A stretch of DNA of 63,239 nucleotides, counting the filler, from Stramenopiles sp. TOSAG23-3 (Eukaryota), in NCBI GenBank assembly GCA_900128585.1. It is 11 parts of 11 records of this genome, joined end to end, with 100 filler letters (N's around TTAATTAATTAA, not from the genome) between each part and the next. Parts side by side here need not be neighbours in the genome. Positions count along the whole stretch, not along the records: positions 24,991 to 33,213 come from LT643048.1; 10 more parts are not named here. The stretch is one strand, 5' to 3'. This document shows, piece after piece, positions 8,239-53,946 of this stretch; the first letter of the stretch is position 1, and each line of letters opens with the position of its first letter. The notes under the pieces were generated by a model. The model ran no database searches. It saw nothing but the letters and a program-made list of their open reading frames with translations, and had not been told where the DNA came from. The position numbers and the translations under genes are program-made.

Positions 8239-8338
8239 NNNNNNNNNNNNNNNNNNNNNNNNNNNNNNNNNNNNNNNNNNNNTTAATTAATTAANNNNNN
8301 NNNNNNNNNNNNNNNNNNNNNNNNNNNNNNNNNNNNNN
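8239..8338. other. Artificial contig spacer (N44-TTAATTAATTAA-N44)
   Basis: Six-frame stop linker. Identical spacers start at 16567, 24891, 33214, 41509, 49802, 58094, 59381, 60668 and 61955. Contig sizes descend 8238, 8228, 8224, 8223, 8195, 8193, 8192, then 1187, 1187, 1187, 1185. Confidence 0.98.
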
Positions 8339-11802: not shown

Positions 11803-12720
11803 TTTGTTGTGCACTCTTGAGGTTTTTTATGGTGAACGGTTTTATGTGTTTTAAATTGCGGAATTTATTTTGTCTTTTGTTTCAGTTGAAAGTAAGAACA
11901 ATTGAATATATTGAGTTATTAAAAACCTGAACAATTTGTCTTCCTTTCCTTATTCCTACATATAATCACTAAATGAACACGTTTCACTTGGAGGAACACA
12001 TTGAGCACACGTCCCTTCTTCTTTTTTTATTATATTTTACCACCAACCTTTTGTTTCACCTTGCGTAGTTGTACATATATTTTATTAATAGTTGTTTTAT
12101 TCCTGGTACGATCTTGTAAAACATATTAAATTAAGGTATAAATATTTTCAGGGGTTAATGTTAATTGATCATTTCATAATGTTTATAATATATAGAGTAC
12201 CTATTATATTTCAAAACAATTTAATAAGATTATATTAATTATTACTATTTGTATATATATACTTAATTATTAAAGCACAAAACGACAACTTCTTTTTTAG
12301 ACTATTTACACACACGTATTATCTACACAGCATTGAAGAAGAAAAAAGAAAGATTTTGTTGTTGGAGAATGAGTTTGTTTTCTTCATTAAGCATTAAATA
12401 ATAATAGTATAATAACTATAATAGCGTCTACACGTAGTTCTAATAAATTATTCGCAAGGGGATGGATGGGTGGTGGTAGAGTGTAGTAGAGATAAAGTGC
12501 AATTTATTGGAATTTCTCCCTCCTCGATTGTGTGCCATGTATTTCACCAACGAGGTTCGTAGTCGATCCAAAAGAAGTTATATTTTTGACAAATGCTGTG
12601 TGGATGTTGGTTTTTCAACTACTAGGATTATTTATGAGAGGTGATACGGCCCCTTCCTTGATATTTTTACATTACAATAATATGTACTAAAATGGTAATT
12701 TTTTGATAGGATTGTACGCC

Positions 12721-15700: not shown

Positions 15701-16308
15701 TCGATAGATAGCAACACGCGCTCCCCCGCCTTTCCTTTTACGCCAAGCGTTCGAGCCATGGATGCCGAAATGTAAGACTCCTGCTTGCCCATGGGTCTCC
15801 CCTTCCAAAATCGACCAAAATTAATCTCTTCCTCTTTCTTGCTGTCGATGGCAAGAACCGTTATTGTCGAGTTGAAGCTGGGGTTCAGCGCGTTTGACAC
15901 AAGGCCTAACATAGCCCACCTTCCCGACATCCCCGCTATTCCCTTCACGCCTTTGCTGCGCTCTTCCATTTCTGATACGTTAAGAAAGTAACCAGGATTC
16001 GGATCTCCCCGAACAATCTCTGGAAGAAGAAAAAAGTCAGCTTCCGAACCCTCGTTTTCGGCAGTTTTAAGAAATATAAATTTCACGTTAGAGATGGTGC
16101 TCTGAAAAAACGCGAGAAAAAATGTGACCAAAAACACCGCGAGGAAGCCTATGATATAACCCTTCCGGTCTTTTCGAATTCTAGACCTAACGTATGTAAT
16201 AAGGAATTCCATCGTCCCCTCAGCAACACGACTTGTTTCTACGTGAACTTGGGAAGGTTCCACCCCCCCCCCTCCGTTCCCGGACGGCCGCTGCTGTCGG
16301 GCTTGCAT
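12721..16308 (-). CDS. FtsX/MacB-like (type VII ABC) permease with two FtsX domains
   Basis: 1195 aa. Repeated architecture of a TM helix, a large soluble domain and 3 TM helices. Motifs EYGMLRALGM and EFAVLRAIG. Confidence 0.85.
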   Translation of the reverse strand: MQARQQRPSGNGGGGVEPSQVHVETSRVAEGTMEFLITYVRSRIRKDRKGYIIGFLAVFLVTFFLAFFQSTISNVKFIFLKTAENEGSEADFFLLPEIVRGDPNPGYFLNVSEMEERSKGVKGIAGMSGRWAMLGLVSNALNPSFNSTITVLAIDSKKEEEINFGRFWKGRPMGKQESYISASMARTLGVKGKAGERVLLSIDPFAAAQGIFSQAGGLIIGNQNFGADFSTSESLGALAEQLLGISLDDNVTASGNQTSEAASAAIDTIISQNPQLAPFTAGLGGAAGIENALATNLDTLLPNGVTVNLRPVFEDILFPILRQSLVIQEEFIILDTVDYPYGKWPRAIGNVIVIETSEVKRLLLRQIDEAFQNLETSGLLPLLGNEQTLRDQVTAIRQVNLEHYMLQVNVLVEDKIGVYTVPNEEMKGTLRRLSDNFIGSLGKNYRVSIATPLLAVVDAFYFLQLFLDNIFLVVMMLLVFLGSMVIYALLLGNVEAKTYEYGMLRALGMWHRVLSKMLSLNALAFALPAVIAGLILASIINIPIVNIFRGQVNLEVSYVLPGWSWGLALILGVIMPYVANVLPVRKALSSRLRDALDLYRTSSGEITVTMRRLVELGLSPEASSLSISLVAMGFVTFYLMPLSFTMGRIDLFLLLMNLILVAMLVGLSMITQALNSWVEWLFLKFYFYINKIVGRKEDLFLFPIIIKNLDAHRRRNKKTSYMLSITAAFLIFAGVMFALQAKLIRYNAAWLLGADLVVQSINFESPLPASSLSAAINKFKGASSEDLVVDYTFMSFPLYDYDFIKSTRLGSLPFVAGGREAMVMGLERNFLDVCYEGFVVEKERVKSPDNPLLEVEPNIVYALYDGAGQIGLGGGKKMEANDTLIATTKYSNQGVAAKGDDPPYIDTLMSYAMTEYSSITTSTGAKLIVKVSEGKKDLDISNIVRPRALMSKMPTAAFSSYSLLANRAPLFVPMPQAQYLLEQARKGRQTLVDSALLNDTLTEPIAKARMLIKMKDGSSLIDRETVTNAILTVFAGGLASSFNFVIIDTKDLIETTEVAITLLDVVLGLIGFICMSLCFLVSYVSFEANITENAREFAVLRAIGISSRQVQKAYILEALSLVLSSFTLGCLIGITIATSLTLQMNLFLEAPFEFSFPVVNFVILFVISILVAVCASYFPSASLIKEQIANVIKSG

Positions 16309-17039
16309 ACTTCCCTAACTATATTGTAAACGTTTGCGAAAGCAATAAATAACACTTCTTCGCTGTGAAATGTTCGAGATGTGTACAGGGAGCAAGTGAG
16401 ATAAAATGCCGTGATTGACATTAAGGATTGAAACATTCTGTTTTTACTTTCATCATAAGCAAATGAAAGAAGTAATAATACATTCTGAATAATAATTTTT
16501 TTATTATTCGGTTCCGTCGTATTATGTATTAAAATAATAATAATTCTTTAATACACTTTGTACTTANNNNNNNNNNNNNNNNNNNNNNNNNNNNNNNNNN
16601 NNNNNNNNNNTTAATTAATTAANNNNNNNNNNNNNNNNNNNNNNNNNNNNNNNNNNNNNNNNNNNNAGGCTCCTTTTTATTTTTTATTTTACGTTGGGAT
16701 AAAACATATGGACTGTATATGAATGACTGTACGTATTCCTTTTTCTTCTGCTATTTCATTATTACTAAATATTATATTTTGTTGGTGATTTTTAATTTTT
16801 TTTATGTCTTTTTTAAAATTATTCGTTGGCTGGCTGAATGCGCAACGGGCAAATACAAGCAATAACAGTTGTGATAAGCTCATTTTGATGATAAACCTAT
16901 GTATGCAGTCATAAAATTCCTATCCATATGATGACAAAAAAGAACCTTTATTTTAAGCCCCACATACGAGCAATATAAATACACCGGTACGGTACGAGCT
17001 AACCAACCAGAAAAAAAAAAACAAAAAAGAAATGAAGGC

Positions 17040-21105: not shown

Positions 21106-22538
21106 GTTTCAAACGATGTATCTTTTAGTTGCAAAAAAAAATACTTTGAACAGTTCAACAAATTCTAATAACAGGCCAGCAATTTAAAATCTACAACAAC
21201 TAATGAATCGTGTGAGTCGTTTTCGCGCAAAATTCCAATCAAAGCATATCGACCTTTTTTTATCAGAAGAGAAGAAGAAGCAGCAACAAGTAAGAGACGA
21301 TGATGAAATAATAAATACATTATAATTAGTACTATTATTAGTCGTCGTCTTTCTATTTAAAAGTACTATAGATATTTTACCCATGCTGTATAGATGTACA
21401 AATGTAGGACTTTTAGCAGTTTGGTGAAACACCTGCTCTGCAGTGTAATGTCTCATCTCAGTTTTTATCGGATAAATTTTTTTGGATGTCCTGCCGTGCC
21501 ATCCAGTGCTGCCGCATTTGCCAGTAATAACTAGTACGAGTATTACATACTAGACTATAATAATAAAAGATAGGCAAGTTATTTGTTAAATTGTCTTAGC
21601 AGATCGCAGCGTTGTTATTACATACAGTAGAAAGAACGAATTTCCTCGTTCGCTTTTTTTAGTTCCTAGTAATTTTAATTATCTGCGCTGTCCAATTATT
21701 AACTACGTAGACGAATAGATCTATGGTGGCGACAGTCTTTTTATCATGGCATGGTGTTGGTGAGTGAGGCTGGAGATAATCAATCCTGCTGTGTAAAGCA
21801 CGTTGCCTACGTATTCTCCTATTCACTTATTAGATCGTAAAATTTGTACGTAGCAGGGTAAAAAGAAAGTCGTTAAAAGAAAAAACTGCATTGTAGTAGT
21901 GATACTGCTATATGGTGGAACTTTTCCGTTGGTCGTACTACATGGCATATCATCGCCAAATCTTATTGTTCTTTTTGACAACTTTTGTGTTGGGCGCGTG
22001 CACCGGAATAGCAACAGGACCGATATGGAACTAGACCGAGTGAAGCGATTATTTCGTATTAGTTGGTGGTTGATTGGTGCTGTAAAAATACCAGGAGATA
22101 GTTAGCTACGAGGTAGTCTACGAAGTAAATAAGAAAAGCCCATCCTTCGTGCTGCTAAATATCAATGCTATCGCGACGCTAAATTTTGGTCTGGTTGTTT
22201 TGTAGTAGTTTTTAAAAATGTATTGTGTTCGTAATTTCGATCCTAAATTCCATATAAAACAAGTACGTAGCACAGCATAGGGAGAAAACAAAATTACATC
22301 GTTTCCTGTCCCGTTTAGTCTGTATTGGAGGGAGTAGCAAGTGGCGTTGCGGTGGCGATTGAAGACTTTGGAGGGCCTCAAGCGCGATAGTATTTGTTTC
22401 TGGAAGATCGATCGGAAACATGTTTCTCACCCTTCGATCAAATATAAATTTCCCTATGCTAGAAGGCAGGTGTTTCTAAAGCTATTTAACAAAACATTGA
22501 AAAGAAAACCTTGATTTGTTAATTAAAACATTACTCCA

Positions 22539-24629
22539 ATGGCAGAAACCAGTCCAGACAGTAGTCCAGCAGAAGGGCAGGACACTGAGAAGAACGTGAC
22601 GAATAAATTCGTTGTCGGGGCTTCAAAAACAGCAGACGCGTCAAAACCAAACCCCTTCGGCGGAACAGGTCTCTCGGCCAACAAATGGACCGCCGCAAGA
22701 GGTCGCCTGAAAACGAGTGTTGTTCTGAACATATCAGCGAGAAAAAACGTACTGGCAAAAGCTGATATGCTGGTTGACGACGGCCACGGTCATCATCACC
22801 ATCACTGGTGTGGGAAGTATATGATTCACCCAAACAACAAAATCAGAAAGTATTGGGATGTTGGCACTGTGCTTTTCGTGCTATATTTGTGTTTCAAGAT
22901 TCCATTTTCTATGGGATTTGAGCACTGGTATGGCAACAAATCGTTAAAACCGTTTGAAATATTCATGGACTGGTGGTTTGGAATTGATATTATTCTGAAC
23001 TTTTGCACCGGTTTCATCCACGACGGGCACTTGGTAATGAACCCTTGGGCAACGATGAACCATTATTTTGAATTTTGGTTTTGGATTGATATCCTCGCTA
23101 CCATCCCTTTCGAAATGTTCGTCGAAGGGATGTCGAAAAAGGACCGCAAGGCAATCAAAATGGTTAAATGGCTGAAAATAACTAGATTGTTGCGTATTGG
23201 TCGAATTCTGAAGCTGCTAAAAGGCTATGCAAGATTCTACAAGGTATTTTTGGCATTGATTGGGTTCATCTGGATGATGCACTTTATGGGTTGTATGTGG
23301 ATTTCGATCGTAGAACCGTGCATCATGATGGATGCCAATGGATACCCCTGGTATGCGCACGATCGTATCGACCCAGTCGAGGTAGCATATATACAATATA
23401 AAGGCTACACCATGTATGCGGAAGGCTCCGACTGTAACGACGTTTGGCGCATGTACGCCACTGCTTTGGATTACGGCGCGAAAGCTATGCTTGGCGCTTC
23501 GCCTTTGCTCATTAGTGGCGAAGATGATTGGATTCACCGGGTTACCTCAAACCAAGCAGGCTCAATGCATGCATTTGGGTTCTTTACTTCAGCGTTCGGA
23601 ATTATTTGCACAGCGTGGGTGTTCGGCGAGACTTTCGTTATTCTGTCTCATGTAGACCCCCAGGGTTGGGATTATTTTGGAAGATTGGACCGCATCAAGA
23701 AAGAGCTTGTACTTTACAATCTCCCGGAAGATATACAACATGACGTACTGCAATACTATGATTATTTGTACATGAACAGTAAACACGGGAAACAGGCTAT
23801 CCTTGGCGATGTTGATATGAGCGTATCGTTAAAAAAGCGCGTAGCAATCGCGTTACACCTCGATACCATTAGAAAAATTGATTTGTTTAAAAATGCATCA
23901 ACCCCCTGCATCCAAAAAGCATGCCAATTCCTGGTTATGGAAATTCACATGCCACATGAAATTATCGTTTCCGCTGGAGAACAAAGTTTGCATGTAGACG
24001 CAATAAAGATGTACGTCGTTGAGCGAGGCAAGCTGAGCGTCATCAAGGGTCTTCCCAGCAAACATGCTACTAAGGGGCACCATGGTCATGGGCACGGGCA
24101 CGGGCATGGGGATCACGAAGAAAAGTCAGGGGTGCACGGCTATATTGCGAAATTCAAAAAGTTTGGTAAGAGTTCATTGAAGAAAAAACAAAAAACAGCC
24201 GAGGAGATCGAAGAAGACAAGAAATTCAAGGAAGCCCAGTTGTCAGAGCAATTCGGTCACGATGAAGAAGTTATTGTGACTGAAATTGGACCCGGGTTGT
24301 CTTTCGGAGAAATAAACATTATAGACCCATTCCATGCTAGGAACAACTCTATCCGTACCAAGACCATCTGCGAGCTGTACACCCTGACACACCACGATTT
24401 CAGAATTCTTTTGGAAGCGTTTCCAACTTTCGGAAACGAAGTCAAGAAAGTAGCAGACCGAAAGCATCTGAGCTTCACTCTAGACCATTACCACGAGGCA
24501 AGAGAGATGGAATTGCACGAAGGAAATCACGTTGATGACGTTCCTGTCAACGAAAAATTGAAATACATCGACAGGCAATTGAAAACCGTTATGGAAGGCA
24601 TTCGCAGGCTTGAGAAAGCAACTTCGTAA
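22539..24629 (+). CDS. Cyclic-nucleotide-binding-domain ion channel (KCNH/HCN/CNG superfamily)
   Basis: MIHPNNKIRKYWD, DIILNFCTGF, FWIDILATIPFE, S4 KWLKITRLLRIGRILK, C-linker, CNBD with FGEI...RNNSIR...CELYTL. Confidence 0.88.
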   Translation: MAETSPDSSPAEGQDTEKNVTNKFVVGASKTADASKPNPFGGTGLSANKWTAARGRLKTSVVLNISARKNVLAKADMLVDDGHGHHHHHWCGKYMIHPNNKIRKYWDVGTVLFVLYLCFKIPFSMGFEHWYGNKSLKPFEIFMDWWFGIDIILNFCTGFIHDGHLVMNPWATMNHYFEFWFWIDILATIPFEMFVEGMSKKDRKAIKMVKWLKITRLLRIGRILKLLKGYARFYKVFLALIGFIWMMHFMGCMWISIVEPCIMMDANGYPWYAHDRIDPVEVAYIQYKGYTMYAEGSDCNDVWRMYATALDYGAKAMLGASPLLISGEDDWIHRVTSNQAGSMHAFGFFTSAFGIICTAWVFGETFVILSHVDPQGWDYFGRLDRIKKELVLYNLPEDIQHDVLQYYDYLYMNSKHGKQAILGDVDMSVSLKKRVAIALHLDTIRKIDLFKNASTPCIQKACQFLVMEIHMPHEIIVSAGEQSLHVDAIKMYVVERGKLSVIKGLPSKHATKGHHGHGHGHGHGDHEEKSGVHGYIAKFKKFGKSSLKKKQKTAEEIEEDKKFKEAQLSEQFGHDEEVIVTEIGPGLSFGEINIIDPFHARNNSIRTKTICELYTLTHHDFRILLEAFPTFGNEVKKVADRKHLSFTLDHYHEAREMELHEGNHVDDVPVNEKLKYIDRQLKTVMEGIRRLEKATS

Positions 24630-24890: not shown

Positions 24891-24992
24891 NNNNNNNNNN
24901 NNNNNNNNNNNNNNNNNNNNNNNNNNNNNNNNNNTTAATTAATTAANNNNNNNNNNNNNNNNNNNNNNNNNNNNNNNNNNNNNNNNNNNNGC

Positions 24993-27344: not shown

Positions 27345-30300
27345 ATGAGCACGGCAGTGTCGTTGAAAGCTCTGGAAATCCCTGGGAAGGTAACACAGGT
27401 TAAAATGGAAATTCCTGAAAGGGGCCATTACTACGAAGGGGACTGGCTTGATCCTCCAGGGGTTGCACATGGAAAGGGAAAGTACATATGGGAAGACGGT
27501 GCCCGCTACGAGGGTGATTGGAAAATGGGTTTAGCGGACGGCTTCGGTGTGAAAGCACACCCGAACGGTCAGCTTTTTGAGGGTATGTGGAAGAAGGACT
27601 TGCAGCACGGGGAAGGTAAATGCATGTACCCAGATGGAACCACATTTCAAGGCAATTTCAACAAAGGAATGAAAGATGGAAAGGGAACCTTGACGTTTCC
27701 AGACGGGTCCACATATGTAGGCAGTTTTTACAAGGATCTAATGCACGGTAAATCGGTTTTCAAGAGACTTGGGATAGGAATTTTTGAAGGAGAGTTTGAG
27801 AACAACAACATGAAGCTCGGAAAGTTTACGGCTGAAGATGGGGTCGTATATGATGGGCAATGGAGTCGTAACAAGCAACACGGCTGGGGCATTGCGTATA
27901 AGGAAGAAGAGGAGGGGAAGCGGTTGGGGTATTGGATAAGCGGGAGGCCAGCGACCGATAAAGAATTTTTAAATGACTTGATGAAGGATTTTCCACAGGC
28001 GAAAAAAGAAAGGCCGCTGCATTATGCATTATCAACCTTTGCTTCGAAGGAGAACATATTTCATTTCCTTAAGCTTTGCCCTGATGACGTGAAAAAGAAA
28101 GACAGAGCAGGCCTTTTACCGATACACACGGCTTCGTATAAAGGCGCCTCTGTGGAGGTCATCGAAAAGCTAGTCAAACTGTACCCCGAAGGCATTTCTG
28201 TGAGGACAATGGGCGGTGGCGTTCCGTTGCACAGTGCGATATTTGGACGAGCTTCATTTGAAACTACAATAAAGTTACTGGAGCACTTTCCTGAAGCAAC
28301 AAAAATTATCACTAAGAATGGAAACACATGCTTGGCACTCGCTTCATACAAGGGTCTCACGAGATTGGTACCGTTGTTCCTTGCGTTAGACCCGACCGCT
28401 ATTGACCGCAAGAATACTAAAAAGGAAACTCCGCGATCACTTGCCAAAGATTTCGGGCATCGTGATGTGTCCAAACTATTACGAGATGAAAGAAAAACAA
28501 TAAATGAATTTAAATACCATTTGAAGAAAGGAGGCATAGAAGGATTAACGTGGGATAAATTCATGGTATGGGCTAAGAAAGTTATGCCCCCAGATACGTA
28601 TAAGACATGGGCAGAAAAAAAGGAGAGCGCTGGGGCCGGGGTTTCAGAAAGCAAAAATTCTGTCGACAGAATTGTCCAGTCAGTTGTTCAAACAGATTGG
28701 ATGAACTTCAAATCGAACGGCAACTGGGCTTTAGAGAAGGTAAAGGAACTTCTTCGAAGCAATCCATCGGCGGCAAGGGAAGAAGATGAATATGGTTCAA
28801 TGCTTTTACACTGGGCAGTGTACATGGACGCACCACTTGAGACCGTTCAGTTCATATACAATGAAAATAAGTCAGCTGTTCGAGTACCTGGGAATAGCGG
28901 GCACTTGCCGTTACATTTTACCATATTTGGTTTCGAGACGGATCGGGAGATAAATTTTGATGTAGTTCAATATCTTTTCGATGCTTTCGAAGAAGGAGCA
29001 ATCGCCAAAACGTCAAAGGGAAATACTTTCATGCACATCATGTGCCAGACCGACAGAGCAGTACCAACAGAATGGTTGGAAATGCTGATGTTGAAGTATC
29101 CCCATTCTGCGTCGGTGAAGAACGACAACGGGTTACTGCCGATTCATCTACTGGCAGAGCACTGTCGGAGCAAAGAACAGCTTGATTTGCTGGTCAACAC
29201 CTATCCAAAAGGGGTCCAAGAAGCCGACCAAACAAATAAGTGGATCCCGCTGCACTACGCTGCCTCCGTTGGGAATCTTGTGGCCGTTCAGCTTCTGTTA
29301 AAGGCTTTTGCTCCAGGCGTGCATGAACTAGACTCGGAAGGAAATACACCGCTAAAGTTAGCGATGAATTACAAATCATTAAGCGTGTCCAGGGACAGAG
29401 AGGAAGTTATTGCATTGTTGGAAACGCAAAAATCAGCTGCCATGGACCATGCGAGGATGATTCTTCGTCAAGTTTTACTTTCAGGCGACAGTCAACCATG
29501 GATGCGTTCGAAGCTAATGCTAGTGGGTGAGGGTCGTGCCGGTAAAACGAGCACCTTGCGTTCTCTTATGGGAGAGGCATTTAGAGAGAACGAAATGAGC
29601 ACCATTGGGGCCACCACAAAGACATGCACCGTAAACAAATTCAACGTGAAGATTAATCGTGACAATACTGTTCAGCCATGGAAAGAGAAAGTTGACCAGC
29701 AGTCCGAGTTTGACACGGCAGTAGCAAAGCTTGTAAAAAAAGGCTTGCAGAAGAAGAAAGCAGAGATGCTTGTGAGCCAGAACCAGTTAAGAAAAAAACA
29801 AGTCGGAACGACCCCAACCGCTGCTTCTGTGGAACTTCATGATTCCGCTTCCCTTCGATCAAATGAAACGAAGAGCGAAGGGTCACAGCAGACTTTAATA
29901 AACGACTCTCTCTCAATAGATCAGGATCTCGACCGCGTAGACAAGGGATCGATTTTAGTTTCTTCTCTACCGAGTGGTTCTAAAGGTTCCGAAAGCATGC
30001 AAACCCCCTTTAGTGATCACATGGAGCAAACGCCTGTTCGAAGAATTCATACGGCGAGAAGCCCCGAGCAGCGAGCGGAAGAAATTATCAATAACTATGG
30101 CGATGTAGACATTCAGAACTTATTACAAGGGGCAGAGAACACTTTAAAGCTTGGTATTTGGGATTATGGTGGGCAGGAAATATTTTATGCTGTTCATCAC
30201 TTGTTTTTAACACGCTTTGGGGTATACCTTGTGCTATTTGACATGAGAAAGATCCTAAAACCCGAGACAAGGAGTGACTCAATTAATTTTATCAGGTTTT

Positions 30301-33213
30301 GGTTGAATTCTATTGCTCTATATGCAAGGTCTAGCACAGACAACGGCAAGGAAGAAAGCGGGAAAGGCAGCCCAATTTTTTTAATCGGTTCTCATAAGGA
30401 CGTGGTTCCTGAAGTGGAAGAACACAAGAACATATCGGACATTTTGACCAGAACGTTTGGCGCAAACATTGAACGACAAAACATTCAACGGAATGAAAAA
30501 GAAGGTATCTGTTTCTTTCCCATGGACAACACTGCCGAAAACGATTGTAATGTGATTGTGGTTCGACAGTGTGTAGAGAAAGTCATAGCAAAGGAGGAAT
30601 ATATAATGGAAGAGTACCCTATCGCTTGGATGACAGTATGTGACGAGTTAAAGAATAAGAGCCAGGAAGACGCGTACCTTACGCTGGAAGAAGTGTATGA
30701 GCTTGCCCTTGAATGCGGAATTAAAGATACTGGTGGCGATCCGGACGCATCCAAAAAATCATGGGTAGAAGTGAACGCTATGTTGGCACACTTTCATCAG
30801 CTTGGCGTCATCGTCTACTATGGCCATAGGCAAGGCTTAGATCAGCTAATTATTCTAAATCCCCAGTGGATTGTCGACAGAATATCTGATGTAATAAGGG
30901 AGTTTTCTTCTCAATCGTTTACCCATTCAAGGGGGAGGGACAAATTTGCGAAAGAAATGAATGAAGAGTGGTCTGACTTGACTAAAAAAGGGGTGTTAAG
31001 CAAGCGGCTACTCCGCCATTTGTGGCGTGGCGATCACCGTCATGTCGATTTTTTATTGACTTTGATGCAAACGTTTGCGTTGATATGCCCTCTTAAGATT
31101 CCTACCGCAGGAGCGTTGCTCTTGCAGTATATGGTGCCGAGTTTATTGCCTTCCAAAATGTTTCCTTTAAAAGAGAACCGAAGGCACGACATTGAGATCG
31201 CTTTTGGTGTCTTTCTTCCCACTGGTATATTTGGCAGGTTGGTTGTCGTTATGCTAGAGTACTATTTCTCGGAAACAATCGAGAGATACGGTAGCTATGA
31301 GAATAGAATGGAAAACGTTGCAGAGAAGGCGAGCGCCGATGGCGCCCAAACCGACCCGCTGATTCGGTCTTTGAAAGAAAATGGCCCATCTATTTACAAA
31401 ACATGGTGCGCATTCAACTTTCACTCAAAAGGCTCTCTGATAATATCAATGCGCCAATCGAATAAAGATATAGTTGTTTATTTTCTTGACGACGAAGCGA
31501 GGATGAACTGCGACGAAATCTTTTCCGTGCTGGGAAAATTAATTAACACTTTGAACATTGAATTTTACAACTCACAGTTGAACATTTTACTGACTAAGCC
31601 AAACGAACAAAAAGCATCATTGGCTTTAGATTTGTCAAAATCTTGGCACCGTCCCAGATTGGACATCTTGACAGCTCGTCGAAGTACCGCCTCGGCGTAT
31701 CTGACGGGCGAGGCGAAGGCCAAAGGGTATTATACAGTGCCGAACCTAGAGGATTTGTCAAGCGATGGCGACGTCGCTCACATAGAAAATTTTGTAGTGG
31801 GACGTAAAGGTTACGGGAAAATAAAATGGTTGTGCCCCGTTAATTTGTCAGAAGCTGGTGCAATTGACGACATTGTCTTCATTGAAAGAGGCGACGTGTC
31901 AGTGTATGAATTTCATAAACGGGAGCCAAAGCAGGGGTACGAGCTGAATTGCTCCGCTCAAATCGAATTCGAAAATTTCTTTCCGCCGGATAAGGACGAC
32001 GATACAAGAACGGCACGTTTTTTGCGTCGCATGAAAAAAATTGAGAGAAATGGTGGTTATGACAATTGTGAGTACAACGCAGAGACAGGAACATGGAGGT
32101 TTGAAGTCCAGCACTTTACAATTCAGGGCTGGAACGCCGAAGATAATGAACTGATTGAATGGATACTGAACCTACTTTGGTTGCCTCGAAGACATGATCG
32201 AAATCGCGATCAAGCGAAAGACTATGCAGAAGGCCTTCTTAAACAAGACTATTATTTGGAAGAGATCATTGGCGACCCGCCCCCTCCCCACGATGACTGG
32301 TCTCCTGCAAGCGATCCTCCTTCGATTCCCATACTCGAGGCCGCCGGGTTTCGACCATTGCATATTAGGAAAGTTGTCCGCGTGCTGGCTGCTTTGTACC
32401 CAACCAAGAGAGAATACCAAGGTGTTCCAGCACCAAAATCTGTAGCAGTTGCTACTAAGCCTGCAGTAACGGTCGCCCCAGCAGTGAAAGCGGCTGAGAA
32501 AAGTCCGACTACTAGTGTCTCAGGGTATGATGTGTTTTTATCTCACGATTGGGGAAAATTTACTATCAAAGGAAAAGATGGTAAAGCAGGGGTAGAGATT
32601 CAAAATCACGACCGGGTGAAAAGAATAAACGAAGGCCTGAAAGCAGTTGGCCTGGAGACATGGTTTGACGAAGATAGAATGTCTGGTAACATAAATGATC
32701 AAATGGTTTCTGGAATTGACAATTCGTCTTGCTTCTTGGCGTTTATCACGAACAACTATATTTTAAAAGTTTCAGGGGAAGGACCAAATGGAAAAGCGGA
32801 CAACTGCAAGAAAGAGTTTGAATACGGAGAACGAAGGAAAACGGCAAAACGCATGATTCCAATCCTAATCGAGCCAAGTGCTTGGAATACAAAAATGTGG
32901 AAAGGGAGTGTAGGCATGTGTCTTGGAGGCGAGCTGTACTTTAAGATGGACGAGGCAGACGTATGGGAAGACAATGTGAAATTTAATGAGGCAATCAGTA
33001 AATTGGCAGACAAGGTTAAAACCACTATCCTGTCGTGCGGCAATGCATTGGTAAACCAGAAGAAGAAGGCGAAAAGCACTCTTCAACCTGCTTCAACGGT
33101 TTCAGCAGGGGGGGGTAGTGGACCGGCAACCTCAAAAAATATTGTCGCCGCAAAATTGAAGACAGCAGGAAATCAAGCCTTGGCGAGACCGGTTAGCGAA
33201 TGCAGTGCCGTGC
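27345..33213 (+). CDS. Roco-family protein: MORN - ankyrin - ROC GTPase - COR - Nup98-like autopeptidase - SAM-like - TIR; 3'-partial
   Basis: MORN repeats YEGDW..G..HG.G (about 27425-27940); ankyrin PLH/PIH repeats (about 28010-29420); GEGRAGKTS (29526), WDYGGQE (30159), GSHKD; COR ILNPQW; GYYTVP...GRKGYG...TGTWRFEVQHFT (31725-32120); YDVFLSHDWG...WFDE...NCKKE (32526-33020). Confidence 0.92.
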
Positions 33214-33313
33214 NNNNNNNNNNNNNNNNNNNNNNNNNNNNNNNNNNNNNNNNNNNNTTAATTAATTAANNNNNNNNNNNNNNNNNNNNNNNNNNNNNNN
33301 NNNNNNNNNNNNN

Positions 33314-33680: not shown

Positions 33681-36206
33681 TTATCCCTGCGCAAACTCCG
33701 ATTCATCACCGTACCCAGGCTCTGCATTTGGGGTACGCGCAAGTCGTGGCCGCATGCTAAAGGCCTTTTGATACTCTGGGTCGACGGGTTTGTGGTAACG
33801 CAACTTTTGCTCTTCTGTCTGTTCCTCTTGGGAATTTTCGTTGTACTTTTGCCCGAATTCACCAGGTTCTACATATCCAAAATCATTCGTTTGAGGCGTC
33901 CGAGGAATTTTCGGTTTCGATTGCAACTCTTCCGAGGGAACCATTCGATTCCGCTCGTCTTCCGCCCTTGTCGTTCTTTCCAGAGAAGATTTCAGGTCGC
34001 TGCCTTCCTCTCCATCTTCTTTCCCGCCTTCTTCTTCTGCAAACTTGCTGCTAGCACCTTTTGTGGTGTCTCCTACTTTTCCCCCGGCATCCTGTGCTGG
34101 AGCATTGGCTAGGCCCTTCGGTCGTCGGCCAGGGGTCGCCGGACGCTGGAATGCCTGTGGTAACTCGTGGTCGCCGTGCGGATGGTCGTGGTGAGCCGGC
34201 TGGTTGGGGGCCTGGCGCTGGGCCGGGGCGGAGTGGTGTGGAACATACGTTTCGTTTCCACCGTCTTCAGATGCATACTTGTTGGATAAAAGTTCTTCTC
34301 CCTCGAACTCGCCATCCTTCGAAGATGGAGGCTGCAAGGTCTCCTCGTCGTCCTCTTCGGGTTCTTCGTCCTCTTCCGGGTCCTCGGCGTCTTCCTCCTC
34401 TTCCTCGTCATCCCCATCTGACAAATCGTCGCCAGCAGAGTCTTCTTTCTTGAGCTGGTTCAGAATATACTCAATTTGTCTTTTGAACTCGTCGTCGCTG
34501 TGTGTCATGAGACGGCGCAGCATTTCGTCCATTCCCATCTCTAACGCCTGGTTCTTCAACGACGGGCGCGTCAAGACACTGTAGAGCGTACCGTTGACGT
34601 ATGTTCGAACCTGATGGTTGTCGCTTTCCAGCAAATCATTCATTACTTGTAAGATACCGACAGAAGGTTCTTCGCACTTAATTTTTCCGAGCGTGCGGAC
34701 ACTCAAGTTCATCAGCAACGCCGTTGCGTACTCAATGGTGTACTCGCTCAGAACCCCAGCCCCGTCCGGGCCTGCGGCCGTTTCGTTCTCCGAGTGAAGG
34801 CGCAAAATAGAAGTTATCCACTGAATCAAGTTGTTCTCGATCATTACGGTCTGGGGTTTTCTTCGAAGGCTAAACTTCTGTAGGGCGCCGAGCGCGTTTT
34901 GGCGAGTAATGTTGTCTTCCTTCTCTTCGCGCAAAGCGTTTATCAGCAAGGGGAGCACTTCTCCGTGGTTCAGGAGATAAGATCTCCCGGACACCTCCGA
35001 GGCCAAGTGATTCACCAGCCTGCAGCAATATTCTCGAATGCTCTGGTTCTTGGACCGCAAGAGCTTCGCAAGAACGTCGCTGCCGCTCCCAGAGCATCCC
35101 AACAAGTCGTTGTTTATGTAGGACTGCAAGACCTTTTGGCGCAGCGCACGGGGGCGCGCACGGTTCAAGCGCCATCGCAACGCTTGCATAATGCGACAGC
35201 ACCGCAAGCCCGCCGCAGGGTCTTGGTCCCCGCCATCGCACAACATTGCAAGGTCGGCGCGAACGTTGGAGTATTCTAAGCGCTTCAAGGAGCGCTGAGG
35301 GGCCGGGCCGGGGGAGGCCAAACGAGCGTCTCCCGTGCCACCGGCGGACAATACGTCGTTGAACGAGTTCAGACGATGGCGCGCGTAGTCCATGAACTTC
35401 TCTCGAACCGGCTGCCCCGTTCGCATGCGATCTAAGGCTTGGACCAGCTCGATTGAAAGGGAATAAACGGATCTTGCGAAGTCTTTCAACTTCTCTTCTC
35501 GTGCAAAAAATGCCTCTTTCAATTGCTTTTCTCTCGCCTGGTCAAAGCCCGCCTCGCCAGCCTCGTGCTTGGACTCGGCGGCTGCAAATGTCCGGTACAT
35601 GTCCGGAAGGCTTATGCTTTCCAAAATGACGTCTAGGAACCGCTCCAAGCGGTGCCGTATCTCTGCTAACCATTTTTCCTTCAGGAGGTGCTTGAAGGAC
35701 GGGTGCTCGGATGGGTTCGGCACGTACGGAAGCGCGTAATACGACAGGAACTCCGGGGTCTGGGAGAGCGCCTGCCCGCGGGTTTCCAAGAACTTGCGGA
35801 ACGAAAGCATGGCAGACGCGGCCAATCCCGCCGCTTTCTTTGCACCCCCTTGCTGGGCAAGTTTTTTCAAGAAAGACACTCGAAACGGCGCTACTGCGAA
35901 ATGAATGTGAAGGTAAAACTCTAATTTTTTGGCAATGTCGTTCTCGTTTCGAACGTCCTCTGGGACGTGCTTGTCCCACAACGTGAAGAACCGCTCGAAC
36001 TTTCCGTTATCGTACGCCTGCATCATTTCTCGGCGTAAACGAAACCGCATGTCCTCGGTGCTGCGGGCGGACGCGCCAGACCTCGGCGAGGGGGCTGTCT
36101 GCTTCAGCTTTTGCCTACCTTCAACCTCGAAGCACTGAAGGGTATTTAACATGTTGTGGTACCGCAAGTATTCCTCCACTGCCTCTTTGATACGTTGGTC
36201 CGCCAT
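33681..36206 (-). CDS. ARMC9: LisH domain-containing armadillo protein ARMC9 (ciliary)
   Basis: N-terminal LisH (VEEYLRYHNMLNTLQCFEVE), KLEFYLHIHFAV, SQTPEFLSYYALPYVPNP, LGALQKFSLRR, EYATALLMNL, YVNGTLYS. Confidence 0.93.
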   Translation of the reverse strand: MADQRIKEAVEEYLRYHNMLNTLQCFEVEGRQKLKQTAPSPRSGASARSTEDMRFRLRREMMQAYDNGKFERFFTLWDKHVPEDVRNENDIAKKLEFYLHIHFAVAPFRVSFLKKLAQQGGAKKAAGLAASAMLSFRKFLETRGQALSQTPEFLSYYALPYVPNPSEHPSFKHLLKEKWLAEIRHRLERFLDVILESISLPDMYRTFAAAESKHEAGEAGFDQAREKQLKEAFFAREEKLKDFARSVYSLSIELVQALDRMRTGQPVREKFMDYARHRLNSFNDVLSAGGTGDARLASPGPAPQRSLKRLEYSNVRADLAMLCDGGDQDPAAGLRCCRIMQALRWRLNRARPRALRQKVLQSYINNDLLGCSGSGSDVLAKLLRSKNQSIREYCCRLVNHLASEVSGRSYLLNHGEVLPLLINALREEKEDNITRQNALGALQKFSLRRKPQTVMIENNLIQWITSILRLHSENETAAGPDGAGVLSEYTIEYATALLMNLSVRTLGKIKCEEPSVGILQVMNDLLESDNHQVRTYVNGTLYSVLTRPSLKNQALEMGMDEMLRRLMTHSDDEFKRQIEYILNQLKKEDSAGDDLSDGDDEEEEEDAEDPEEDEEPEEDDEETLQPPSSKDGEFEGEELLSNKYASEDGGNETYVPHHSAPAQRQAPNQPAHHDHPHGDHELPQAFQRPATPGRRPKGLANAPAQDAGGKVGDTTKGASSKFAEEEGGKEDGEEGSDLKSSLERTTRAEDERNRMVPSEELQSKPKIPRTPQTNDFGYVEPGEFGQKYNENSQEEQTEEQKLRYHKPVDPEYQKAFSMRPRLARTPNAEPGYGDESEFAQG

Positions 36207-37901
36207 GGTTGCTGTGTATTAAGAGTGGCCGTCACAACTCAGGGTATTTAAAGTCCACTATATATTATGTGTGTACAAGTAAATATTAATAACTCCTCTC
36301 CACACGAGAATGTTCGTTTCACATACCTGGTAGAAGAAGAAGGGGAATGAATGAATTCAAATTCAAGTTTATTATTTATTAGTGATTTGATGATGATGTT
36401 GGATGGAGGAAGAAAAAAAACATCAACGCAGAAAGAGGAGGAACGAAAATAATGACACGACGACGGTTATATTATTATTTAATTATTTTATTAGACGACA
36501 AGTATTATAACTATAAATAAAAAATAAAATAAGAAGAATAGGAAAAGGGACTACTACGAGGACGTAATATATAATACCACGGTCCCTCACCCCTTCCGTG
36601 CACCTCCTGCCTCCTTGTATTAGTTATATTGTAATACGCCTGCCTCGTGCGTTACTCCCTGTAAAAAAAAAAGAATAATGATTCTAGTTAGTCTACATAA
36701 ATTATATACTTATACTCATTATTTGATGAAGAAGAAATTATTCATTAAAATCAATTTATATTGTAGTCTCTCTATAATTTATAGTATAAAATAATCCAAT
36801 TTTGTAATACAATTTCAGTTATACTGATAAAGCTTTCTATTTACTTCAGTGTACTGTACTGAATGTATTAGTTATTACGTATTCTATTCCCAACAGAGAG
36901 AGGCTCTCTTCTACGAGTACTCGTATTTATATAGTACAAATAAATAGACTAGGACTAAATATAATTGTATAATTAACTCAAAAAAATACCGTTTAATTTT
37001 GAATAAAAATAATAATGTGCTAATAATGTACAATAATAAAAATAATGAACAATCCCTTTGGTTAAATTGTAATCAATTAACAATTAAAAATCCTAAATTG
37101 AAGCTTCTTTTTTTTTGACAAACTAGTTGTGTTCCACTACGAATGTATTGTACAAATCATTGCTGATACAGTTTTAAAAGGGGGGAATTTTAAAAGCTAT
37201 ACTTACTTACAATAGGAAAGAAGAAAGGAAGAAGAAGAACGGAGACAGCATTCAATATGTATTAATTCTTATTCTAAAAATATATTTTCTATCAATAAGG
37301 AAATTATCTCCCTATTTAACTAACGAACTCCTATTTATACAGCTAGATACCAGTAGAAGAAAAGTCCGGTCTGTTTGTTTATAGTAGTATTCCATTTCAC
37401 CTTATTACAATGTAGTACAAAGTGTAATGTAATACAATCCCAAGATCTGATCTGCAACGTTTTCTTTCTTCTTCTTCTTTTCATTATTAATTATTATTAT
37501 TTTTTTTGTTGTAAATACTGTACTGTAATTATTCTCTTCTTTTTTTTTTATTGTTGTTGTGTAGTATTACTATTAGCGCTATACAAACACCCAATTATAC
37601 GGCAAGCAGGTCCGTTATATAACGATCATCATTTATTTACAAAAATAATATCATCATACCATCATCACACCATCATCATTACCATTTCCCCATTTCCACC
37701 GCCCACCACCTACCTCCTTTTATCTCGTGTTTTGTGAAATGAAGAAGACGAGAAAAAGAATTTATAAGTCATTTATGAAAAGGAAGAACAGAGAACAGAG
37801 AAGTCTTGTTTATAGAAAAGAGGGAAAGATAGTATTTTATATTAGTGTGTTTTGACTACCGCGGGTTTTGCTCTTGGTTATTTTGTCCACGCGTATATAC
37901 C

Positions 37902-40900
37902 ATGTCACACCCGGCTGCACGGGCTTTGAAAGGTCATGCGTTCGTGGCCTCTTCGTCAGTGAAGCAACCGTTTAGGATAGTGGACGATCAAGTCTATGCC
38001 AAGTTAGGAGGCAATGAAACCTTGCAGCCCAGCCCTGCTATAGTTCACTTTGGTGGGTTCGCGCTCAACGAGACCGTTACTCAAGTGCTAAAGGTTGTCA
38101 ACACGTCGAACATAGCGCAACGGCTGCATGTAATCAACACGACCACGCCTCATTTTTCGGTGTCGTGCAACAAGAAGGGAGTTGTGGCGCCGGGCATGGC
38201 GGAGAATATAGTCATCAAGTTCAAGCCCGACGAGTGGCGATACTACTACGACTGTGTTAGAATCCACTGCCAGAATGAGAACTTGCTGATCCCGATCCAT
38301 GCCTACCCTGTTGCCAACGATGTGTTCTGCCCGACCTTCCTGGACTTTGGGAGCGCAGCGTTGCTGGACAAAGTTACCAAGACGATTTCCCTTTCGTGCA
38401 AGGTCCCGATACAGTTTGAATACGAGCTGACGATAGTCAAACCCCATAGTGATTTTGAAGTGTACCCTTTGAAAGGAATCATTCCTGCAAACGGCAAGAC
38501 CGACATAACGGTGACGTACTGCCCTGTGAAGCTAGGGACCGCAGAGATGACGTTTCAGGTAAGTGTGTCGCAGTTTAATTTTGAACCATTCCAGTGCCGC
38601 ATCGTCGGGAACGCTGCGCCAGGAATTACGCGGCAGCGCGTGCTGAACAAATTAGCGAGCAAACACGGGCCGGCGTCGGAGCTGTCCCCAACGCATGGCG
38701 GTAGCGCCAACCTAGGTATCTCGATGAACTCAGAAGTGTCCCGAGACGAAGATCATGACCGTGATGCACTTAATGCAACCTCTCAAACCTTTTCCCTGGC
38801 TCGAAAGAACGTTAACAACGTGCCGTTGGAAACGTACGACACCAAAGCGGATCTGTCGTGGCACGGGCTAGGATCAGGCGCTGCGATTGATGCCGGTGGC
38901 GCGTACATTGGAATCAAGACTAGAAAACGCCACAGGCGAAAAATGGAAATTTCCAAGCAAAATAGTTTGACGATGACTTCGGAGGAGTTGAAGGCCAAGG
39001 CGAAGGAGGATTCCAAGCACGATATCCCGGAAGAGACCGTAGTAGATGGAATCCGTATACCGCGGGACCTTTCGACGATGTCGTCCGTCAACTTTGTCCT
39101 CACCCAAGAGGTGGGGAAGCTGAAGCCAAAGGATCTGAAGAAAGCGGTCACGCAGCAGCGCGCAATGAGGGAAAAGCGCCGGCTAGAACAGGAGGCTTTA
39201 AAAAAGCAAAATTCGGGAGGTATGGTCCCGGACGCGGAGTCAATCATTACCTCTGTGGTGAATAGTGTCGGGGGGAAGCAGAGCACGCGGCAGCTGAAGG
39301 AAATGGTATTTCTTCAAGAGTTCCGAGATTTGACAAAGGGCGAAGAAGATTTAGAGTTTCAAACCCAAAGAGAGCGTATTGGAAATGTCCTCATAAAAAA
39401 ACAAGATACCGAGCGCATCTTGCTGGCCCGCGCGGCCGCACAGGAGTCCAAGCTGCGAGTCCATCGCGAGAAAGACCGCCGAAGGTACTTCACGCAAGTC
39501 CAGGGCCCGCTGCGAGATGGCGACATGTTAGGAAGGGCCGAGTGCATGTCCTACCTATTGGGAAGACCAGAGAGAGTCCCACAGTTCGACATCTACTCAA
39601 ACAACGTTTGGCTGATGCGAAAAGAGGTGCTGCAGCGCTTCGTTGGTGCGGTCAACACGACAATGATACGGCGGCGCGTGAAGAAACGTTACAACATGCT
39701 AATGCATAAACTTCGGCACGCGGGGGTTGTCACGAGGGCGGACGCTCGGGCATTCGTGGAGAGGGACAACCGTTTGGCAAATATTTCGGAGGGGGGGCAA
39801 GACGATGGGGATGATGAGAACACCGCGGGCGATGCGGAGGCCTTTGCCCTTGCCAGCCGGATAGATCTAGTGGCGTTCGATGAATACTCTGCGTCGGGCG
39901 GAGGAGAGAAAACGTCAAGTGGTGGCAGCATTTTTGACCCGGTCAACGCGGATTGTATCCGCGACTTTGACCATTTAGAAACGCTCCCGTTGCGTCACCC
40001 TAACCAGGCTGGCCTTTTGAATTACGATGCCATGCCGAATCCCGCGGTTTCAATTTACATGCCGAAGGAAGCAAATAGACAGCTTCGAACCGGCGCGGAA
40101 GAAGAGGAGCCGATTCGAGTCAGTGCAAAGGTTCCGTCCGCGCCCAAACCTGCTGGGGAAGGCGAAAGCGAAGATGCGGACACAAAGGAAGAAGAGCAGG
40201 GCAAAGAGATGGCCGTAGTGCCGTTGCCAAAAGGGTTTGAAGCATGGCTTGAGGCAAACCCAATGCCCTTAAAGACGTTGCTAAAGCCGGACCCGACAGT
40301 GCGCGTGTTTTTGGATACATCCGAGCCTAGAGAAAGTGACCCAGAGTACGTACTCAAACCCGCCTACGTCAAGTTCGACCCTCCGGCAACCCGGCGAAGG
40401 GCCATTGTGGAACGGGCAGGGTGCAGTTCAATTGGAAGCATCGAAGGCGTGGCCATGGTTTCCAGCGTGTATCGTCCGGTAAGCCAGCACCGATTCTCGA
40501 CACTTTCTTCCCACGATGACCACCGTACTCTCTGGGATGTGAAGGAACGCCCAATCCTGGGCACGAACGAGGAGGACCTCATGAGCGACACCGACAGTGA
40601 TGAAGAGCCGGTGGAGGACGAAGAACCGTTAATGCCAACTGTAGAGCTGTGCAAATCGTTTTTCGATTCAGACGAAACAGAAGAAGGGTCGGCGGAAATG
40701 GACGGCGGCGATGCTACTGAAGGCGATGCCGAAAAAGCAGCAGATGAAGAAGCCGCGCCCGCGCTGAATGCTGGGGCAGATGAGGAGGAGCCCAAACCCA
40801 AGGATTTGTTTTACCCACTTTCTCGGGAAGCAAAATGGGTACAACTGCTCGAGGAAAGAAAATTAGAGAGGGATGGAAGATGCAAGAAATTCCGAGAAGA

Positions 40901-40970
40901 ACTTAACAAAGTGGACGGCTCGGTTTCGTACCCAAGGCACAAGTTGTACCATACTGAGAACAGCGTGTAA
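37902..40970 (+). CDS. CFAP221: Cilia- and flagella-associated protein 221 (PCDP1)
   Basis: PAIVHFGGF...FKPDEWRYYYDCVRIHC...LLIPIHAYPV and a second ASH-like domain (VSQFNFEPFQC). First ATG is at 37902. Confidence 0.9.
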   Translation: MSHPAARALKGHAFVASSSVKQPFRIVDDQVYAKLGGNETLQPSPAIVHFGGFALNETVTQVLKVVNTSNIAQRLHVINTTTPHFSVSCNKKGVVAPGMAENIVIKFKPDEWRYYYDCVRIHCQNENLLIPIHAYPVANDVFCPTFLDFGSAALLDKVTKTISLSCKVPIQFEYELTIVKPHSDFEVYPLKGIIPANGKTDITVTYCPVKLGTAEMTFQVSVSQFNFEPFQCRIVGNAAPGITRQRVLNKLASKHGPASELSPTHGGSANLGISMNSEVSRDEDHDRDALNATSQTFSLARKNVNNVPLETYDTKADLSWHGLGSGAAIDAGGAYIGIKTRKRHRRKMEISKQNSLTMTSEELKAKAKEDSKHDIPEETVVDGIRIPRDLSTMSSVNFVLTQEVGKLKPKDLKKAVTQQRAMREKRRLEQEALKKQNSGGMVPDAESIITSVVNSVGGKQSTRQLKEMVFLQEFRDLTKGEEDLEFQTQRERIGNVLIKKQDTERILLARAAAQESKLRVHREKDRRRYFTQVQGPLRDGDMLGRAECMSYLLGRPERVPQFDIYSNNVWLMRKEVLQRFVGAVNTTMIRRRVKKRYNMLMHKLRHAGVVTRADARAFVERDNRLANISEGGQDDGDDENTAGDAEAFALASRIDLVAFDEYSASGGGEKTSSGGSIFDPVNADCIRDFDHLETLPLRHPNQAGLLNYDAMPNPAVSIYMPKEANRQLRTGAEEEEPIRVSAKVPSAPKPAGEGESEDADTKEEEQGKEMAVVPLPKGFEAWLEANPMPLKTLLKPDPTVRVFLDTSEPRESDPEYVLKPAYVKFDPPATRRRAIVERAGCSSIGSIEGVAMVSSVYRPVSQHRFSTLSSHDDHRTLWDVKERPILGTNEEDLMSDTDSDEEPVEDEEPLMPTVELCKSFFDSDETEEGSAEMDGGDATEGDAEKAADEEAAPALNAGADEEEPKPKDLFYPLSREAKWVQLLEERKLERDGRCKKFREELNKVDGSVSYPRHKLYHTENSV

Positions 40971-52246: not shown

Positions 52247-53946
52247 ATGTATCCAATGCTTGCTGTTGAAGTAATCTGAAATGGGACCGTTCGCCTACAC
52301 TAGCATCGATGTGGTGAATCTTATTGAACACTCTGCGGTCTCGATCGGAAATTTCTAAACATTTGCATACATTTCAACAAAACATTCCTAATTTTTATAT
52401 GAACTAGGAATGGCATAATGTTCTAGGCACTTTATTACTTCTTATTTATTATTATTATTATGGTGCGGTGTCTTTTCTTGTTTGTTGTTGTTGTTGCTCT
52501 TCTTCTTTCCGCGATGGTGCAATGGTGATGATGGTGATGGTGTGTGTATGTAGTCAGACTATTGTATTTTGTTTCTTTTTTTCCGGTCGGTAGATAATAA
52601 TGCTACTACGTCTTCCTTCCTTCTCTCTCTCTCTCCTGCATACAATGCAATGCAATGCAATGCAATGCCATCCCACCATTTTTAATATTAAATAATGTTA
52701 AGTAGTAGGACTATAAAAGTACCACTCCACTGCTTTGGAAGGTTCTCAATATATATTAGTTTTGGAACTACTTTGTCTACTTATTTAACTATTATAGCTG
52801 GTACAGCTATTCTAGATCTACTTCAGAAAGAAAGACTTCTTTCACAATTTATTTACATTGCACATCATTGTCAAACCTGTAATTCGTTCGTGATGGCTTC
52901 TTCGCGCGATAGTTTATGTAACAACTTCTCCTTGCTATTTAGTCTAGTTTACCTTTTGTTGGAACACAATTTATATAATTCCGCAAATAAAAAATAACTT
53001 CTCTCTGCTATTCGGTGCAAACCCTTCAAATGAACAAGACCTTCCCGTTTCTGACAGTTTTTCTCCCTGTGCCTTTGTTACAGTCATTTTTTGGTCCCCG
53101 ATCAACCATGGCTGTTACATTTTTTTTAGAAGTGTGCTGGGCTGCTGGGCTGTTTGAAGGACGGACGCCACACATTTCGATCCCAGTTGTTTGTTCCTGT
53201 TCTTCTGTTCTTCTAGCGCCCCCCCCTTCCAACTCACCTTCCTGCAAAAGCAAAAGGGGCGCACACACCTATTATAATATGGCACTCTCCCCTACAGCTA
53301 GCTGTAAAACGATGTACGAAGTACGGATAGGATAGCGCACACCACCCTAATTTTTAACTACGTAGACGACTACAATATATTTATTTAGTCGTCTGGATAT
53401 GGAGCGTTACTTGTGCTTTGGTTGGGCCAGACGAATGCTTCATCCTCCTCATCTTATCTTAAAAATGACTTCAACAACTGCCCTCGTGTCATGCCTAACT
53501 TCGCCTAATATCATATACTGTATATATGATATATATATACTATCAATTATAAATTAAGTATACTAAAATTGTACTACAATATGAATACCGGTACCTGTAG
53601 CAAAACCGTACTTGAGCGCCATTTGGTCATTTTTGACAACATTTTCACTTTCATTCACATCACCACCACCCACAGACCCACAGACTCACCACTCTTATTA
53701 TTGAAAAAAATAATTTATTAATAATAATCTCATCGATGATCAAAAAAATGAAAATAGATATATTTCATTCTGTCTGATTGTTCTGTTCTTTTTTCTTTAA
53801 AATCATCAATTAAGCATCAATGAAATGGATTAAATACGGAGCGTGTCTTTGCCATTCTTTCTGTCCGTATTTGTTCCTTTGTTCGCACTGCGTATTTACG
53901 GTTTGTTCCTACTGCCCGTGTGTGTACAGTGAACATAGACTTTGTG

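Follow-up and report, generated by a model that had tools for sequence, protein, structure and literature searches.

What is a self-cutting domain of the nuclear-pore type doing in a GTPase protein that ends in a TIR domain? The question was raised by one gene in a stretch of 63,239 nucleotides from Stramenopiles sp. TOSAG23-3 (GCA_900128585.1), hereafter the window. The gene encodes a Roco-type protein of 2063 amino acids (aa) in a single intron-free open reading frame (ORF), with the Pfam order MORN-ankyrin-Roc-COR-S59(HF/T)-helical domain-TIR-tail, where S59 denotes a Nup98-type autopeptidase domain and the slash marks its predicted cut. The studied region, the last fifth of the ORF, closes contig C2326. 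What the sequences establish is the architecture, together with its conservation and the states of its motifs. The reading that we tentatively favour, at slightly short of even chances, is that of a pre-cut Roco receptor of a marine protist, in which the self-cleaved halves would stay docked and a trigger would free or cluster the SAM-like-TIR piece to cleave NAD+.

A single frame joins S59, a helical domain and TIR

The features of the gene are as follows.

27345-33213, plus strand: ORF from its ATG at 27345, still open where the contig stops; 2063 aa in full
27417-27899 (approximate limits), plus strand: MORN repeats (Pfam PF02493, E 5.6e-22)
28008-29384 (approximate limits), plus strand: ankyrin repeats in two blocks (PF12796, E 1.4e-22)
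29499-30530, plus strand: Roc GTPase with a long insert (PF08477, E 8e-17)
30618-31664, plus strand: COR-A, then a presumed COR-B region (PF16095, E 9.7e-18)
31722-32117, plus strand: Nup98-type autopeptidase domain (peptidase S59) with His-Phe as its last residues (PF04096, E 7.6e-30)
32112-32120, plus strand: predicted scissile motif HF/T, cut between 32117 and 32118; HF/S in two relatives
32118-32132, plus strand: new N-terminus TIQGW, which the alignment with 29 Nup98-type proteins equates with the SKYGL-type start of Nup96; predicted docking strand
32133-32417, plus strand: five-helix domain, probably SAM-like (HHalign against 24 SAMs, low-confidence models, weak fold match, 41% identity to the homologue)
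32418-32525, plus strand: flexible linker of 36 aa rich in Pro, Ala and Val, from the sequence
32526-33008, plus strand: TIR domain (TIR_2) of the SHDWG...DNCxxE clade (PF13676, E 3.4e-12)
32814-32816, plus strand: Glu1824, the catalytic-position Glu of CxxE (alignment of relatives; match to Cat1 E74)
33009-33213, plus strand: start of a low-complexity C-terminal tail, not a SAM

The motifs named in the preliminary description were all located in one frame: HFT (32112-32120), ELIEWIL (32148-32168), YAEGLLKQDY (32223-32252) and LEAAGFRPLHIRKVV (32334-32378) in the S59 end and helical domain, YDVFLSHDWG (32526-32555), LETWFDEDRM (32652-32681), GIDNS (32712-32726), FITNNY (32742-32759) and DNCKKEFEYG (32799-32828) in the TIR domain, and RPVSECSAV (33186-33212) at the end, after which an N-linker closes the contig. 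ELIEWIL had been placed immediately after HFT; it does lie downstream, but nine residues stand between them.

Membership of the Roco family was evident from tandem Roc and COR domains, with PF08477 and PF16095 above the cut-off and the G motifs of Roc intact (P-loop GEGRAGKT, 29526-29549; DYGGQ, 30162-30176; GSHKD, 30387-30401). The COR-B assignment is presumed from position and from 30% identity to the homologue.

The fusion is shared by a homologue, and its S59 joint by a third gene

The assembly is eukaryotic, 28 Mb in size and fragmented into 7088 contigs, and an artefact of assembly or gene model, in which a Roco gene had been fused with a Nup98 piece and a TIR, could draw on this fragmentation as well as on the canonical Nup98-Nup96 not being found in the genome, where the Nup96 search was equally blank on its own controls. 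Against such an artefact, the gene is one open frame and is held by four full-length records (P0005, P0007, P0008 and P0010) in the ENA and JGI collections, of which P0005 has 2063 aa and 3 differences from the window. Furthermore, S59, helical domain and TIR were spanned by single contigs in 3/3 RNA-library runs, each from another study, so that the S59-to-TIR fusion is not chimeric; contigs from RNA and DNA runs passed the junctions, with joints reported in 0/4 runs. A homologue of 37% identity keeps the same order. An artefact, to which we had left a negligible chance, is excluded by the bridging contigs and the architecture of the homologue. The RNA-library contigs are consistent with expression and fall short of proof of it; their coverage is thin over the 5′ half of the gene, and this carries no evidential weight.

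The homologue is represented by P0202, P0205 and P0210 (1729-1731 aa), which have the same domain order, HF/S at the joint and CRRE in the TIR domain, and which belong to the cluster of P0171, found by profile search. Identity to the homologue was 52% in S59, 49% in TIR, 41% in the helical domain, 30% in the COR-B region and 29% in the linker. In allele P0012 the 36-residue linker differs at 7 positions, and in the helical domain an allele has 1 change in 100. A fragment of a third gene (L003) holds S59 with HF/S and the first part of the helical domain. The three S59 domains form one clade with support 1.0.

Fragments of the homologous gene and of the third gene were found on small contigs of the same assembly. 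Third-position GC on these (L001, L003, L005, L006 and L014; G000 contigs C6368, C584, C3839, C4218 and C2578) was 0.26-0.31 vs 0.42-0.78 in eleven other window genes; the small contigs therefore probably derive from a second, AT-rich organism mixed in, and the homologue probably comes from a second species. L001 had been considered as a true Nup98-Nup96 junction, which was ruled out since L001 belongs to the homologous Roco gene (P0171). In L003 (G000:C584:1-557) the frame breaks off upstream, at the point where coding sequence of unrelated appearance is attached, and the contig is possibly chimeric.

Searches for the S59-TIR module, outside viral contigs and prokaryotic genomes, were based on words and yielded 2/7996, 3/5005 and 30/7997 candidates, with P0171 as the sole non-self S59-TIR protein; a metagenome scan reduced 87 candidate stretches to 2 loci, which both belong to the P0171 gene. 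Among the best 150 of 3731 phmmer hits, a list crowded by TIR-only matches, not one had S59 or the helical domain. In a metagenome contig, a truncated S59 copy (L012:1-204) runs into a stop, behind which the DNA is non-coding; no neighbours were common to L012 and the window flanks, and it is merely a truncated copy. The gene stretch itself was present in marine or seawater metagenome and metatranscriptome runs (20 rows from 15 studies, with 4 rows flagged as possible sources).

Other Roco genes with effector-like ends occur in the genome, for example a Roc-COR-caspase gene (L017), and were counted in favour of the receptor reading. L017 (G000:C4372:1-3238) is a WD40-Roc-COR gene; its COR encloses a pair of EF-hands, and a caspase-family domain (Peptidase_C14) forms its C-terminus. 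L016 (G000:C644), L015 (C1648) and L018 (C76) are further Roco genes; L018 resembles LRR-Roc-COR, and a C-terminal helical region is common to L016 and L015.

The S59 joint retains the predicted cut site

PF04096 was matched over positions 2-145 of 148 (104 bits), and the human Nup98 structure 2q5x matched the S59 domain over its length (E 2.1e-18). His-Phe followed by a hydroxyl residue (HFT, HFS, HFS) and the conserved Asn were kept in 3/3 family members. The HFT form itself was seen in 7/29 Nup98-type hits, all Nup96-fused and of one clade. A Nup98-like protein of Entamoeba has it too, and its bands on blots agree with processing, the cut being unmapped (bioRxiv 10.64898/2026.09.13.750810).

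The following points weigh against self-cleavage. The Entamoeba precedent is soft because the T-to-A mutant retained the predominant cleaved-size band (bioRxiv 10.64898/2026.09.13.750810). In addition, the same preprint names as catalytic a Lys that precedes the conserved Asn by eight residues; in 3/3 family members this position is Glu, with Arg or Lys one residue before it. The Lys named in the preprint was present in 20 of the 28 Nup98-type hits in which the motif was found; the seven Nup96-fused HFT proteins are likewise without it.

The Lys-to-Glu exchange favours an S59 domain that does not cut but works as a binding or spacer module, possibly docking the receptor to partners at the nuclear pore, while the TIR acts in the intact chain; non-cleaving domains of the Nup98 family do exist, for example in Trypanosoma (bioRxiv 10.64898/2026.09.13.750810). 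We consider such a non-cutting domain quite improbable: all three members keep the His-Phe, the hydroxyl residue (T, S, S) and the Asn, and the loss of Lys is shared with the seven Nup96-fused proteins, whose own cleavage is only putative.

The residues behind the cut were TIQGW, SRHGY and SPSGI in the three members, followed by acidic residues, and they parallel the SKYGL-type start of Nup96; they retain the Gly with the hydrophobic residue after it and have Q, H or S in place of the Tyr of that motif. These residues mirror the Nup96 start, and therefore the entire Nup98-Nup96 junction appears to have been recruited. Sun and Guo are said to have described in 2008 how this stretch behind the cut holds the tail docked to the domain. 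No nucleoporin FG/GLEBS or Nup96 family was matched in the protein by Pfam; Roc-COR stands upstream and TIR downstream. On this domain content the protein is not a nucleoporin.

The preliminary description had spoken of a released fragment. The predicted cut does lie directly before the fragment, but release would be an extra step; a docked, pre-cut resting state is likelier because the Gly-hydrophobic docking motif is kept and the halves of autocleaving proteins often remain associated (PMC3210808). The same two observations would also suit cleavage without any release, in which the cut is a maturation step and Roc-COR dimerisation or oligomerisation gathers the TIRs in place; Roco-TIR proteins without S59 do exist (P0021, P0160 and the TPR-ROCO-TIR of Chondrus; PMC11378527). 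Such a course, which we regard as rather unlikely, leaves unexplained why HF-S/T is retained at 37% overall identity and why the SAM-like domain lies on the TIR side of the cut; moreover, the replaced Tyr may weaken the docking.

The helical domain resembles a single degenerate SAM

Immediately in front of the linker, a five-helix domain was delimited, which has a 12-residue Pro-rich insert that is absent from the homologue. HHalign gave a probability of 57-64% for this domain against 24 diverse SAMs, and its HHalign score of 24.5 lay far above the controls, which reached no more than 15.1 (60 shuffles) and 15.2 (71 other segments of the protein); this test was devised after a negative result with 11 SAMs. 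We take it as somewhat probable that the domain is a single degenerate SAM. The SAM-like pattern claimed earlier for the residues after HFT is real, with only moderate support.

Several results speak against the SAM assignment. The positive local HHalign alignment spans 26 columns, and the domain reached only 0.07% against the alignment of 11 closely related TIR-linked SAMs. No Pfam SAM was matched up to E 10 in the window or the homologue, in a search whose HMMER filters hide weak hits. The AlphaFold models, built from 4 sequences each, were five-helix with pLDDT 46.6 and 48.2, and the window's model had no SAM in its top 50 fold matches by VIA-align, which is not proof of absence. Nor did Foldseek return a match at E<=0.001 for the helical-domain models, which at pLDDT <50 is again not proof of absence. 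The ESM Atlas search for SAM yielded sub-0.9 viral hypotheticals and otherwise no usable match, and a PDB profile search of the domain gave fibrinogen only (E 0.11).

The TIR domain keeps the positions of a predicted NAD+-cleaving site

PF13676 was matched with 47.3 bits (cut-off 28), and the Glu that had been described in the CxxE position is encoded by GAG at 32814-32816. The best 150 of 3731 phmmer hits were taken as TIR relatives, all of them TIR matches of one SHDWG/DNCxxE clade; among the rows without a gap at the respective position, E1824 was conserved in 146/148, D1775 in 149/149 and H1734 in 141/143. The best solved relative of the TIR alignment was Cat1 (E 4.3e-6, 85 residues covered), whose active site includes S7, H8, D33 and E74 (PMC12162218). 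These correspond to S1733, H1734, D1775 and E1824, where D33 was aligned directly, E74 was matched via the CxxE motif (CWDE of Cat1 pairing with CKKE here) and S7/H8 were assigned by motif position outside the aligned range. Cat1 activity needs stacked TIRs, two of which together form the active site (PMC12162218).

NAD+ cleavage by this TIR is made less certain by the distance of the Cat1 match, in which the HMMER alignment is two residues off around the Glu, and by the precedent that a TIR-fold protein may have another activity, such as hydrolysis of cyclic ADP-ribose (PMC13455253). The TIR could instead be a scaffold or an enzyme for another nucleotide in routine signalling, with the helical domain a non-polymerising helical or helix-hairpin-helix module. 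The mixed SAM tests fit this; so do the very varied partners across the clade, which include housekeeping-looking ion channel, actin and kinase domains, and a literature search that turned up no tested member. Subscription papers lay largely outside the coverage of that search, which found no functional study of the SHDWG/DNCxxE clade. We judge this alternative improbable, as pocket residues that are near-invariant over about 150 clusters at <50% identity favour catalysis and the best solved relative is an NADase.

Among 76 clade members that were scanned, mostly the longer ones of the best 150, Pfam SAM (E<=0.001) was found in 7, Roc-COR in 2 and S59 in 0. A SAM-like domain together with a TIR that has the Glu is common in the clade, and the interest of the present protein is its placement behind an S59 joint. 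Within the clade, P0026 and P0113 combine LRR repeats with a hydrophobic segment of membrane-like character and between one and three same-clade TIRs, a Toll-like-receptor layout; a recurring subgroup among P0018-P0167 has an MG.. N-terminus (possible myristoylation), a short helical piece and a TIR, often with SAM after it. In a fragment without Roc or S59 (L007, G000:C5077:1-754), an ankyrin-like repeat directly precedes a closely related TIR. PADLOC returned weak TIR-type matches only.

The C-terminus is a low-complexity tail

The ORF runs on for 107 residues past the contig end before its stop. These final codons were recovered on G000 contig C4369, which shares a 79-base exact overlap with the contig end, and P0005 is identical there; the extension of the contig that the preliminary description had called for thus yielded the C-terminus. 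It had been proposed that a second SAM begins at RPVSECSAV. This was rejected: from RPVSECSAV onwards the tail has 116 aa, 52% of them S/T/A/P and none aromatic, and its score with the SAM alignment was 0.09%. A short sequence is imperfectly duplicated here: RPVSECSAV is one of its copies, and the other, RPSSESSAV, is seen in P0005.

Proposed working of the receptor

What we infer for the protein is self-cleavage, docking of the halves and their release, polymerisation and NADase activity, along with a putative role in immunity. In the pre-cut reading, the folded S59 domain would cut itself at HF/T through an N-O acyl shift on Thr, yielding a sensor/GTPase half of 180 kDa and a smaller half of 472 aa and 51 kDa. 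The small half would be held in the S59 groove by its TIQGW strand, with the TIR kept monomeric and silent. As a trigger one may imagine, speculatively, ligand binding by MORN or ankyrin repeats with a nucleotide-driven rearrangement of Roc-COR, or alternatively destruction of the large half; either might free or cluster the small half. The single SAM-like domain would then give head-to-tail contacts, and the stacked TIRs would form composite sites and cleave NAD+ at Glu1824, with NAD+ depletion or an ADP-ribose-type signal as the outcome, in defence or cell death.

To our knowledge, the immune signalling of free-living protists is largely unknown, and the protein offers a compact, testable case for it. 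If self-cleavage and NADase activity hold, the pre-cut logic of human inflammasome sensors would have arisen independently, here from another autoprotease with a GTPase as the switch, and a first function would be known for a very large TIR clade. The boldest form of this, that a marine protist lineage independently built an NLRP1/PIDD1-style receptor from the Nup98-Nup96 junction, with a GTPase-released, self-polymerising, SARM1-like fragment that destroys NAD+, seems unlikely to us, albeit with a real chance. Under it, the large SHDWG/DNCxxE clade would moreover be a family of catalytic TIR effectors of microbial eukaryotes that has so far gone unnoticed.

Other genes in the window

Genes across the N-linkers are not true neighbours, because the window concatenates unrelated contigs joined by N44-TTAATTAATTAA-N44 linkers (8239-8338, 16567-16666, 24891-24990, 33214-33313 and later). 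The following genes were noted on them.

9568-11826: AMP-binding enzyme, an ordinary eukaryotic gene
12721-16314, minus strand: FtsX-like permease of 1197 aa, in a eukaryotic genome
16935-18218, plus strand: single-domain voltage-gated ion channel with C-terminal EF-hands (Pfam)
22527-24629: cyclic-nucleotide-gated-type channel, an ordinary eukaryotic gene
33681-36218: ARMC9, an ordinary eukaryotic gene
37833-40970: CFAP65/Hydin-like Ig protein, an ordinary eukaryotic gene
53824-56670: UPF1, an ordinary eukaryotic gene

Comparison with known systems

With the Nup98-Nup96/Nup145 S59 domain (PF04096) the protein shares the full-length match, the His-Phe-hydroxyl motif and the conserved Asn, and with the start of Nup96 it shares S/T-x-x-G-hydrophobic followed by acidic residues as the opening of the downstream piece. 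Unlike Nup98-Nup96, it sets this joint in a Roco-TIR context that has no FG repeats and no Nup96, Lys is exchanged for Glu and the docking Tyr is lost.

In NLRP1, CARD8 (both with FIIND/ZU5-UPA) and PIDD1, a sensor is likewise followed by an autoproteolytic joint of the F-S/T type and a small oligomerising effector (PMC3210808). Here, however, the joint is S59 and not ZU5, the switch Roc-COR and not NACHT, and the effector TIR and not CARD or death domain; Pfam matched no ZU5, FIIND, CARD or death domain in the protein. The resemblance may at most be one of working mode, and the protein is not a family member.

SARM1, an ARM-SAM-SAM-TIR NADase, also has SAM before a TIR with the catalytic-position Glu, but its two tandem SAMs form an octamer (PMC9499636), whereas the present protein lacks an ARM domain and has a single divergent SAM-like domain, from which a linker of 36 aa leads to a TIR of the TIR_2 clade. 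By its lack of ARM repeats, its one helical domain and its low-complexity tail, it is not a member of the SARM1 family. Cat1, a bacterial NADase of the TIR_2 type to which the similarity is distant, differs in being activated by cA4 through its CARF domain.

Algal and protist Roco proteins have been proposed as immune receptors (PMC11378527), and in the accessible text of that paper Nup98 and MORN have 0 occurrences each. A preprint on microbial GAIN-like autoproteases names, in its accessible part, no nucleoporins, S59 or TIR (10.64898/2026.05.12.724683). No report of S59 in a Roco or TIR protein was found in a literature search that largely left out subscription papers, and supplement tables could list the fusion. 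The closest layout, that of the TPR-ROCO-TIR of Chondrus crispus, has the same core of repeats and Roc-COR with a C-terminal TIR, whereas here a predicted cut site and a SAM-like domain stand between COR and TIR. Roco-TIR proteins are already in print (PMC11378527).

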